Position numbers and translations under genes: made by a program
Origin: Escherichia coli
Lineage (GTDB): Bacteria > Pseudomonadota > Gammaproteobacteria > Enterobacterales > Enterobacteriaceae
Reading direction: 5' to 3' (one strand)
DNA length: 64,000 nucleotides
Assembly: GCF_003790525.1 (NCBI RefSeq)
Contig: NZ_CP033635.1
The notes under the pieces: generated by a model
Databases searched by the model: none
What the model saw: the letters and a program-made list of their open reading frames with translations, nothing else
Told to the model about the DNA's origin: nothing
Part shown: one piece after another, positions 3,429 through 45,472 of the stretch
Layout of the letters: every line of letters begins with the position of its first letter
Numbering within the stretch: position 1 is the first letter of the stretch

Positions 3429-4067
3429 ATGAGTTTATTTGATAAAAAGCATCTGGTTTCCCCCGCCGATGCCCTGCCTGGACGTAACACCCCGATGCCC
3501 GTAGCCACGCTGCATGCGGTCAACGGTCACTCAATGACCAATGTACCTGACGGAATGGAGATTGCCATTTTTGCGATGGGTTGTTTCTGGGGTGTGGAGC
3601 GTCTGTTCTGGCAGTTACCCGGCGTTTACAGCACCGCCGCAGGCTATACCGGCGGCTATACGCCAAATCCGACTTATCGGGAAGTGTGCTCCGGCGATAC
3701 TGGCCATGCCGAAGCGGTGCGCATTGTTTACGATCCATCCGTCATCAGCTATGAGCAGTTGCTACAAGTATTTTGGGAGAATCACGATCCCGCCCAGGGA
3801 ATGCGTCAGGGCAATGACCACGGTACGCAGTATCGTTCAGCGATTTATCCTCTGACCCCAGAACAGGATGCCGCCGCTCGCGCCAGTCTGGAACGTTTTC
3901 AGGCGGCGATGCTTGCCGCCGATGACGATCGTCGCATCACCACGGAAATCGCTAACGCCACACCGTTTTATTATGCCGAAGATGACCACCAGCAATATCT
4001 GCATAAAAACCCGTATGGTTACTGTGGAATTTGCGGAATTGGCGTCTGTCTGCCGCCGGAAGCATAG
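3429..4067 (+). CDS. msrA: Peptide methionine sulfoxide reductase MsrA
   Basis: Internal start [12 protein letters not shown]... gives 212 aa; GCFWG active-site motif; the longer track ORF from 3363 is rejected as a 5' extension. Confidence 0.93.
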
Positions 4068-6325: not shown

Positions 6326-6883
6326 ATGACCCTACGCAAGATTCTGGCACTCACCTGCCTGCTGTTGCCGATGATGGCTTCCGCACATCAGTTCGAAACC
6401 GGTCAGCGAGTGCCGCCGATTGGCATCACCGATCGTGGCGAGTTGGTGCTTGATAAAGATCAGTTTAGCTACAAAACCTGGAACAGCGCGCAGTTAGTGG
6501 GAAAAGTGCGAGTACTGCAACATATTGCTGGTCGCACCTCTGCAAAAGAGAAAAACGCGACGCTGATTGAAGCGATTAAATCAGCAAAGTTACCGCACGA
6601 TCGTTACCAGACCACCACCATTGTTAACACCGACGACGCAATTCCGGGTTCCGGCATGTTTGTGCGCAGCAGTCTGGAGAGTAATAAAAAGCTTTATCCC
6701 TGGTCGCAGTTTATTGTTGATAGCAATGGCGTCGCACGCGGTGCCTGGCAGCTGGATGAAAAAAGTTCCGCTGTAGTGGTGCTGGATAAAGACGGTCGCG
6801 TGCAATGGGCCAAAGACGGGGCGCTTACTCAGGAAGAGGTGCAGCAAGTGATGGACCTGCTGCATAAATTAATTAATAAATAG
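6326..6883 (+). CDS. ytfJ: Periplasmic protein YtfJ
   Basis: 185-aa ORF with signal peptide [20 protein letters not shown]; recognised as YtfJ. Confidence 0.9.
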
Positions 6884-9746: not shown

Positions 9747-9789
9747 TACACTTCTTTTTCGGCCTGCAAATCATCAACCGCATCCGGCA

Positions 9790-9874
9790 TTTATTGGCGG
9801 ATGCGATGCTGACGCATCTTATCCGCCCTACAAGCCATGAACCTTAGTCCGGATAAGCGCAGCGCATCCGGCAG
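9790..9874. repeat. REP palindromic repeats
   Basis: ggcggatgcgatgctgacgcatcttatccgccctaca and ccggataagcgcagcgcatccggcag between the cpdB and ytfH 3' ends. Confidence 0.5.
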
Positions 9875-10255
9875 TTATGCCGCACGTTCATCCCGCACCG
9901 CTAACACCTCGGGCAAATTCAACTCAATCCAGTCCGCCAGTGCAGCAACCTTTTCGCTCACCTGCTCGCCCAGCGGCGTGAGGCTATATTCCACATGCGG
10001 CGGCACCACCGGATACGCGATACGGTTAAGAAAACCATCCTGTTCTAATGCCTGTAACGACTGCGCAAGCATCTTTTCACTCACCCCGCCCATTTTGCGC
10101 CGCAGGTCGCTAAAGCGATGAGTACCTTCGCGTAGCGCCACCAGAATCAACACCCCCCAACGGCTGGTGACGTGTTTCAACACCTCGCGCGACGGGCACT
10201 GTTCGGCGAAGAGGTTACCCTCTTTCAGTTGTTGCGACAGGCTAACCTGACTCAT
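9875..10255 (-). CDS. ytfH: HxlR-type transcriptional regulator YtfH
   Basis: Start at MSQVSLSQQLKEGNLFAEQCP... gives 126 aa; winged-helix HxlR family; track ORF 5' extension rejected. Confidence 0.88.
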   Translation of the reverse strand: MSQVSLSQQLKEGNLFAEQCPSREVLKHVTSRWGVLILVALREGTHRFSDLRRKMGGVSEKMLAQSLQALEQDGFLNRIAYPVVPPHVEYSLTPLGEQVSEKVAALADWIELNLPEVLAVRDERAA

Positions 10256-10278
10256 TTCATACTTACCTTTTTGTACGT

Positions 10279-10295
10279 ACTTACTAAAAGTAAGT
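10279..10295. promoter_or_regulatory. Operator-like palindrome in the ytfH/qorB divergent promoter region
   Basis: ACTTAC-TAAAA-GTAAGT (6-bp perfect inverted arms, 5-bp AT spacer) between the divergent starts at 10255 and 10344. Assignment as a YtfH operator is inference. Confidence 0.35.
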
Positions 10296-10343
10296 TTAGG
10301 TGGTAGCGTATTTAAACACAAGACAAACCGATGGAGGCTTCCC

Positions 10344-11204
10344 ATGATCGCAATTACCGGCGCAACCGGCCAACTTGGTCACTATGTTATTGAATCCTTG
10401 ATGAAAACGGTTCCTGCCAGCCAAATAGTGGCTATCGTTCGTAATCCGGCAAAAGCCCAGGCACTGACAGCACAAGGCATTACCGTGCGTCAGGCTGATT
10501 ACGGCGATGAAGCCGCACTGACATCTGCGCTTCAGGGAGTGGAAAAACTACTGCTGATCTCTTCCAGCGAAGTGGGTCAACGTGCCCCGCAGCATCGTAA
10601 TGTTATTAATGCCGCAAAGGCGGCTGGTGTGAAATTTATCGCTTATACCAGTCTGCTTCACGCGGATAAATCTCCGCTCGGCCTCGCCGATGAGCACATT
10701 GAGACGGAGAAAATGTTGGCTGATTCTGGCATCGTTTACACCCTGCTGCGCAACGGCTGGTACAGCGAAAACTACCTCGCCAGCGCCCCGGCAGCACTGA
10801 AACACGGCGTATTTATCGGTGCGGCGGGCGATGGCAAAATCGCCTCAGCAACGCGGGCAGATTATGCGGCAGCTGCGGCACGCGTGATTAGCGAAGCAGG
10901 TCACGAAGGCAAGGTTTATGAACTGGCAGGTGATAGCGCCTGGACACTGACACAGTTAGCGGCGGAACTCACCAAACAGAGCGGCAAACAGGTTACCTAT
11001 CAAAATCTGAGTGAAGCTGATTTCGCCGCGGCACTGAAAAGCGTCGGACTGCCTGACGGACTGGCGGATATGCTGGCGGATTCTGACGTTGGCGCATCGA
11101 AAGGTGGTCTGTTTGATAACAGCAAAACGCTTAGCAAATTGATTGGCCGCCCAACGACAACGTTAGCCGAAAGCGTAAGCCATCTTTTTAATGTTAATAA
11201 CTAG
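10344..11204 (+). CDS. qorB: NAD(P)H:quinone oxidoreductase QorB (YtfG), NmrA-like
   Basis: 286-aa ORF MIAITGATGQLGHYVIESL... with Rossmann GxxGxxG. Confidence 0.92.
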   Translation: MIAITGATGQLGHYVIESLMKTVPASQIVAIVRNPAKAQALTAQGITVRQADYGDEAALTSALQGVEKLLLISSSEVGQRAPQHRNVINAAKAAGVKFIAYTSLLHADKSPLGLADEHIETEKMLADSGIVYTLLRNGWYSENYLASAPAALKHGVFIGAAGDGKIASATRADYAAAAARVISEAGHEGKVYELAGDSAWTLTQLAAELTKQSGKQVTYQNLSEADFAAALKSVGLPDGLADMLADSDVGASKGGLFDNSKTLSKLIGRPTTTLAESVSHLFNVNN

Positions 11205-45395: not shown

Positions 45396-45472
45396 ATATT
45401 ATTCCATATAGATTAAGTTTAAATATTAATAAAATGAATATTTACAGTACGTAATTATCTTACCAGCTATAG

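Follow-up and report, generated by a model that had tools for sequence, protein, structure and literature searches.

The palindrome ACTTAC-TAAAA-GTAAGT between the divergent Escherichia coli genes ytfH and qorB reads, from its sequence context, as the promoter-proximal half of a 35-bp operator with four half-sites rather than as the whole site. We consider it probable that YtfH is a repressor of the QorR/YodB kind that binds this element (10261-10295), represses qorB as well as itself, and is freed from DNA when quinones or other thiol-reactive compounds act on Cys20. The anatomy of the sequence, its conservation, its co-occurrence with the gene pair and, from the literature, the de-repression of qorB are shown directly; that YtfH physically binds, with what stoichiometry, where the promoters lie, whether the regulator controls itself and which signal it senses are inferred. 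YtfH is among the remaining E. coli transcription factors without an assigned function or known binding site, and is listed as a factor of unknown function in reviews and surveys; a bounded candidate operator with named half-sites and predicted contact bases makes this uncharacterised regulator directly testable. Positions below are those of the window, i.e. the whole 64-kb stretch of E. coli DNA that was analysed, in which the gene pair and the candidate operator are arranged as follows.

ytfH: 9875-10255, minus strand, 126-aa HxlR/DUF24-family winged-helix regulator (open reading frame and RefSeq annotation).
qorB (ytfG): 10344-11204, plus strand, NmrA-like NAD(P)H:quinone oxidoreductase, the presumed regulated target (open reading frame and annotation).
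Composite operator (candidate): 10261-10295, 35 bp, ACTTAC-N6-GTACGT-ACTTAC-N5-GTAAGT, two inverted-repeat sites.
Half-site H1: 10261-10266, ACTTAC.
Half-site H2: 10273-10278, GTACGT.
Half-site H3: 10279-10284, ACTTAC.
Half-site H4: 10290-10295, GTAAGT.
Site A (H1+H2): 10261-10278, 6-6-6 with one arm mismatch, in the ytfH leader.
Site B (H3+H4), the palindrome of the initial annotation: 10279-10295, 6-5-6, ACTTAC-TAAAA-GTAAGT.

Gene coordinates were cross-checked against the RefSeq annotation of E. coli SMS-3-5, a 100% match to the window. The start codon of ytfH, which reads CAT on the plus strand, occupies 10253-10255 and the qorB ATG lies at 10344; by these start codons the 88 bp that the initial annotation had placed between the two genes are exact (spacer 10256-10343, 37.5% GC), as is its position for the palindrome (ACTTACTAAAAGTAAGT). 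QorB matches the Pfam NmrA family with an E-value of 2.5e-24. The E. coli ytfH start sits within ATGAAATGA (10252-10260, minus strand), and a two-codon mini-ORF, ATG-AAA-TGA, overlaps the annotated ATG; an upstream ATG (MKT...) abutting half-site H1 is apparently the ytfH start in several other genera. Between the 3' ends of cpdB and ytfH, at 9761-9828, there is a REP/BIME-like palindromic element; either strand of it matches Rfam naRNA4 (RF02564) weakly (31 bits; gathering score 59.5).

By itself the palindrome is weakly unusual, and the case for an operator rests on conservation. Its arms can be extended to 7-3-7 (ACTTACT/AGTAAGT), but perfect inverted repeats of the 6-5-6 form number 19 in the window (about 0.03 per 88 bp), and an inverted repeat with 7-nt arms and a spacer of 0-10 nt is present in about 6% of shuffled spacers. 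Directly upstream, at 10261-10278, lies a second, imperfect copy overlooked in the initial annotation, ACTTAC-CTTTTT-GTACGT, and TACTTAC is also present as a direct repeat 18 bp apart; in some loci, e.g. L142 and L167, this site A is a perfect palindrome. Half-site centres are 11 bp apart in site B and 12 bp apart in site A. Both sites have the form of a MarR/HxlR-type operator, a pseudopalindrome of 15-20 bp spanning about one helical turn at or near a promoter, although their unequal spacers (6 nt in site A versus 5 nt in site B) count against the operator reading. Two other groupings of the half-sites were rejected: a single long palindrome over 10261-10295, as the centre of its outer arms (10278) and that of GTACGTAC (10276.5) do not coincide, and a dimer site formed by the adjacent 12-bp palindrome H2+H3, which was judged unlikely because its half-site centres are 6 bp apart compared with the ~39 Å spacing of recognition helices reported for YodB.

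Scanning genomes with YtfH gave 80 Enterobacteriaceae species loci (82-99% protein identity); in 77 of them qorB is divergent and the spacer measures 84-97 bp. When 76 distinct Enterobacteriaceae spacers are compared, the mean majority fraction over the block 10259-10296 is 0.967 and 71% of its columns are invariant, compared to 0.76 and 15% for the remaining spacer outside the block and 0.689 and 5% for ytfH third-codon positions in the same genomes. The operator block is under strong purifying selection. Where it does vary, at 10264 (T/A), 10275 (A/G) and 10292 (A/T), the base is a middle one of a half-site, which yields the half-site consensus ACnnAC and fits contacts at the outer AC/GT bases. 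H3 is invariant in the spacers of enterobacteria that retain qorB, and H4 is the least conserved half-site (consensus GTWAGY), with GTAAGT kept by about 30% of 90 loci, mainly Escherichia, Citrobacter and Salmonella, and GTTAGY present in most others. Conservation of the palindrome across Enterobacteriaceae, on which the initial annotation had made its reading depend, is thus borne out for the sequence, but perfect symmetry is confined to about that 30% of the loci.

Two named Lelliottia species (L060, L074) and an unclassified Enterobacteriaceae isolate (L076) had no qorB homologue that we could find upstream of ytfH; in L060 and L074 the neighbours of ytfH are thiol:disulfide ORFs, scsBCD-like in appearance. 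The orphan ytfH of these three loci retains site B, in L060 as the perfect ACTAAC-TAAAA-GTTAGT, while site A has decayed in two of the three.

Promoter elements were assigned from hexamers conserved at fixed offsets, and Shine-Dalgarno sequences were read from the spacer itself. They are:

qorB -10 (inferred): 10304-10309, plus strand, TAGCGT, a TAnnnT at fixed offset.
qorB extended -10: 10301-10302, plus strand, TG, invariant in Enterobacteriaceae.
qorB -35 (inferred): 10281-10286, plus strand, TTACTA, upstream of the -10 at a spacing of 17 bp, within H3 and the spacer of site B.
ytfH -10 (candidate): 10293-10298, minus strand, TAAACT, overlapping H4, in the E. coli-like clade.
ytfH -10 (alternative candidate): 10287-10292, minus strand, TACTTT, a TAnnnT.
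ytfH -35 (candidate): 10316-10321, minus strand, TTGTGT, 17 bp from TAAACT.
ytfH Shine-Dalgarno: 10265-10269, minus strand, AAGGT, overlapping H1.
qorB Shine-Dalgarno: 10333-10337, plus strand, GGAGG, of which GGAG is conserved.

The putative qorB -10 follows H4 at a constant distance, with TAnnnT exactly 8 nt past H4 in 95% of 86 loci, and the corresponding -35 agrees with the consensus at three of six positions. On the opposite strand a TAnnnT at 10287-10292 or 10288-10293, overlapping H4, is found in 94% of loci; a minus-strand TTG has the offset of the candidate ytfH -35 in 42% of loci and is shifted 5 bp closer in 50%, in parallel with the two variants of the -10. A sigma-70 promoter scan of the spacer gave no site at threshold. 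In genomic SELEX the ytfG-ytfH spacer was bound by the RpoD holoenzyme and, strongly, by the RpoS holoenzyme, the latter with a peak intensity of 90.2, among the stronger peaks shown. In four more distant loci (L082, L084-L086) a C directly precedes the TAnnnT hexamer, which would fit a sigma-S promoter.

The conservation of the block is therefore confounded, since H1 shares bases with the ytfH ribosome-binding site and start codon, H3 with the -35 and H4 with a -10. It could be argued that the block is conserved merely as a set of packed promoter and translation signals (qorB -35, ytfH -10, ribosome-binding site and start codon), with an incidental dyad and no regulator, and the overlaps of H1 with AAGGT and the start codon, of H3 with the inferred -35 and of H4 with the candidate -10 hexamers agree with this, as does the binding of the spacer in vitro by RNA polymerase holoenzymes alone. 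However, promoter hexamers are usually degenerate, yet some 30 contiguous bases are invariant here, including H2, which matches no such signal. With the comparative and expression data given below, we regard packed signals as an improbable explanation and favour a site for a DNA-binding regulator.

To follow the element by DNA alone, metagenome contigs were scanned with the exact pattern ACTWAC-N2-V-N3-GT-N2-GTACTTAC-N5-G-N2-AG, in which V excludes the enterobacterial spacer. At least 120 stretches matched, and 80 loci were among the matches listed. A divergent HxlR homologue lies on the H1 side in 78 of these 80 listed loci, the two exceptions having less than 110 nt of sequence on that side, and a qorB homologue lies on the H4 side in 75 of the 80 listed. 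At positions that the pattern leaves free, the matches listed strongly prefer T at 10291 and T or C at 10295; GTAAGT is the commonest H4 (44% of 75 distinct metagenome sequences among the matches listed). The site B spacer is always 5 nt; in the matches listed its central positions 10286-10288 are at least 88% A/T, and T, A and T of a -10-like hexamer stay enriched at 10304, 10305 and 10309.

Four loci among the matches listed (L140, L142, L153 and L167) have the motif beside an HxlR gene whose product is about 33% identical to that of ytfH. The downstream gene encodes a classical SDR in L140 (motif at about 6633-6666) and a YceI-family protein in L142 (motif at 1512-1545), so the motif also precedes unrelated targets, which argues against packed qorB and ytfH signals as the cause of its conservation. 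L167 carries an extended array, GTAAGT-ACTTAC-N6-GTAAGT-ACTTAC-N5-GTAAGT.

Quinone reductase genes often belong to global oxidative-stress regulons, and ytfH clusters by expression with OxyR and SoxS, both of which would suit binding of the site by some other regulator, such as a global stress factor, in place of YtfH. An adjacent HxlR gene nevertheless accompanies the motif in nearly all of the DNA-only matches listed (78 of 80), in very different bacteria, and also in plasmid cassettes. A host-specific global factor would not travel along with the motif in this way, and is for that reason unlikely. Nor does the motif behave as part of a dispersed regulon: BLAST, which sees near-identical copies of at least about 20 bp, revealed a single copy of the 45-bp block 10256-10300 per E. 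coli genome, and the composite pattern was found nowhere else in the 64-kb window or in 415 kb of related loci. Two candidates for further regulon sites in the window, matches with two mismatches at 45440 and 52220, were set aside as being at chance level. We therefore give very little weight to another regulator, and retain YtfH as the presumed ligand of the site.

The arrangement of half-sites extends well beyond close relatives. In L082, L084, L086, L087, L092 and L096, where the proteins are 53-68% identical and the divergent gene belongs to the NmrA family, H1-N6-H2-H3-N5-H4 is kept with different spacer sequences. A BLAST search of plasmids with the 45-bp block gave matches of about 90% identity in Hymenobacter volaticus (Bacteroidota) and Azospirillum brasilense (Alphaproteobacteria). 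In both plasmids (L218, 1803-1887, and L219, 1773-1893, respectively) all four E. coli half-sites are unchanged, and the matches lie between divergent HxlR and qorB-like genes whose products are 60-66% identical to those of E. coli. This identity suggests, from the sequences compared, either horizontal spread of a cassette or extreme constraint on the operator. That the four half-sites persist in Bacteroidota and Alphaproteobacteria despite differing spacers and -10 hexamers is a further point against conservation as mere promoter and translation signals. Partial matches to Bacillus, Lactobacillus, Enterococcus and Streptomyces plasmids (E about 2-8) were treated as chance.

A paralogous HxlR-qorB-like pair (59% and 61% identity) is carried by the conjugative plasmid pJ53-KPC_Vir (L081, 2448-2597), adjoining genes for a TetR protein and a nitroreductase. 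In its operator H1-H3 are retained, H2 being a perfect GTAAGT, and H4 is absent; the same 29-bp match is listed for about 20 other Klebsiella and Enterobacter plasmids. The annotated start of the L081 regulator is probably 48 nt too short.

A bolder reading, which we put forward tentatively and would call possible rather than probable, is that ytfH, its operator and qorB form a self-contained mobile cassette for electrophile defence, near-identical in its operator across Pseudomonadota and Bacteroidota and on chromosomes and plasmids alike, in which operator and promoter are one portable module, the grammar of the site is common to a wider HxlR subfamily and two dimers act cooperatively. The operator would then itself provide the -35-like TTAC of the promoter it controls and fix the -10 at a distance of 8 nt; the ~33% identical paralogues found with SDR and YceI genes would use the same four-half-site grammar; and the two dimers would bind cooperatively on different faces of the helix. 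It is unusual for non-coding DNA that an operator is nearly identical in Bacteroidota and Alphaproteobacteria, and this suggests a portable sensor-promoter module and a possible biosensor part.

YtfH belongs to the HxlR/DUF24 family (PF01638, E-value 2.5e-32, 111 bits against a cut-off of 20.8), and its closest solved structure is that of the Salmonella YtfH orthologue (PDB 1yyv). Cys20 is the sole cysteine in the translated protein, and the tripeptide Cys20-Pro21-Ser22 (CPS) is invariant in 14 homologues of 43-66% identity. In a phmmer alignment Cys20 pairs with Cys11 of HxlR, the residue reported to react with formaldehyde (PMC7835342). A cysteine of the reactive type at the N-terminus of helix 1 characterises the thiol-sensing subgroup (YodB, QsrR, HypR, HxlR, QorR), in which the alignment would place YtfH.

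The regulatory data come from a bioRxiv preprint of December 2025 (10.64898/2025.12.20.695731, supplementary note 6), in which CRISPRi knockdown of ytfH in E. coli K-12 raised qorB by log2 4.6 (~24-fold), with qorB as the sole differentially expressed gene and the effect detected in about 4% of cells; its authors state that no YtfH binding data existed. The K-12 sequence is identical to the window over 10256-10300. Several annotation sources already label enterobacterial YtfH orthologues QorR, as does the SEED subsystem 'NADPH:quinone oxidoreductase 2', and the operator sequence found no mention in the literature searched. The remark in the initial annotation that the target of YtfH is not well defined thus needs partial revision: the preprint and the QorR labels point to qorB, and YtfH-DNA binding is putative. 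The rise of qorB when ytfH is knocked down requires a cis site, and this too speaks against packed signals with no regulator.

The same result bears on a further explanation, an RNA hairpin in which ACUUACUUUU of the ytfH leader (10295-10286) pairs with AAAAAGGUAAGU (10272-10261) and masks the ribosome-binding site. For the minus-strand transcript of 10256-10300 a fold of -9.1 kcal/mol is predicted, with a z-score of -2.1, but a hairpin in ytfH RNA would leave the de-repression of qorB unexplained. Moreover, folding of the full spacer is no stronger than that of shuffled sequences on either strand (z-scores +0.53 and -0.94), and the only pair that varies, 10264:10292, is a mismatch in the majority of loci and hence gives no sign of compensatory change. 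The 5' arm of the hairpin also contains the likely ytfH -10 hexamers and would thus go untranscribed. A search of 10256-10343 with Rfam 15 covariance models gave no match at E-values up to 1. We consider such a hairpin a highly improbable basis for the conserved dyad, and return to its reading as a protein-binding site.

In Corynebacterium glutamicum the genes of QorR and qor2 reportedly form a divergent pair, and sensing by QorR proceeds through a single N-terminal cysteine. QorR is described in PMC3351151, which cites Ehira et al. (2009, J Biol Chem 284:16736), as a DUF24/HxlR-type repressor of the quinone oxidoreductase gene qor2 that senses oxidants. YtfH is likewise an HxlR/DUF24-type protein encoded beside a quinone oxidoreductase gene, the link to QorR itself lying in annotation labels alone; it differs in coming from Gram-negative enterics and in having a candidate operator of four half-sites with spacers of 6 and 5 nt. 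The layout of regulator divergent from oxidoreductase gene recurs in the Enterobacteriaceae (77 of 80 loci), in the metagenome loci listed (75 of 80), and in L218 and L219.

YodB of Bacillus subtilis and QsrR of Staphylococcus aureus, members of the same family, are quinone-sensing repressors whose targets are quinone or azo reductases, and in YodB, QsrR and HypR the equivalent N-terminal cysteine responds to quinones, diamide or hypochlorite. In the alignment Cys20 occupies the N-terminus of helix 1, like the reactive cysteines of YodB and QsrR. The YodB box, TACT-N7-AGTA, is a short palindrome bound in two adjacent major grooves (PMC8063818), and has an exact match here:

YodB box: 10278-10292, TACT-N7-AGTA, the sole match in the 64-kb window against 0.23 expected.

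In this register, however, most other genera have AGTT for AGTA, and the conserved AG at 10293-10294 falls outside it; the best-conserved register here, ACTTAC-N5-GTWAGY, is 2 bp off the YodB box and is duplicated. YodB and YtfH also have low sequence identity (PDB 5hs7, E-value 2e-9), and as YtfH has a single cysteine the Cys6-Cys101' disulfide of YodB cannot form in it. HypR and HxlR of B. subtilis share the Pfam family with YtfH and both bind inverted repeats. The HypR operator is given as GTATCAA-AA-TTGATAC in PMC3351151, and the palindromic DNA of the HxlR crystal contains GTATCC-TCGA-GGATAC (PMC7835342). These two proteins are activators when modified and use outward-facing half-sites of the GTATC type, whereas YtfH is repressor-like by the preprint and its half-sites are ACTTAC/GTAAGT. 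Most likely, then, judging by these resemblances, ytfH-qorB joins the QorR/YodB kind of local redox-controlled circuit, with an unusually well conserved cis element. Together with the knockdown result this suggests a quinone or electrophile sensor of the QorR/YodB type in E. coli, a class that has been studied mainly in Gram-positives.

The proposal in the initial annotation that the palindrome is a plausible operator through which YtfH controls qorB and/or itself is supported by selection, by co-occurrence with the regulator gene, by promoter overlap and by the CRISPRi preprint, with binding putative. We propose that two YtfH dimers probably bind, one at site A and one at site B. In both sites 11-12 bp separate the half-site centres, close to a full turn of the helix, which resembles YodB and QsrR. 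In this model, site B would cover the qorB -35 and promoter spacer together with the -10 region of the back-to-back ytfH promoter, and site A the ytfH leader and ribosome-binding site; with this placement, bound YtfH would shut off qorB and hold down its own expression. If QorR, YodB and QsrR are a guide, Cys20, which stands at the start of helix 1, would be modified by quinones, by oxidants of the diamide type or by other thiol-reactive electrophiles, and this modification would free YtfH from DNA and so induce the quinone reductase.

One of the more distant loci, L086, contains a second divergent HxlR-SDR pair (3726-3925), in which a different motif, AACTACTRAAACGATACTA, is repeated twice, implying operators specific to each paralogue within the family.
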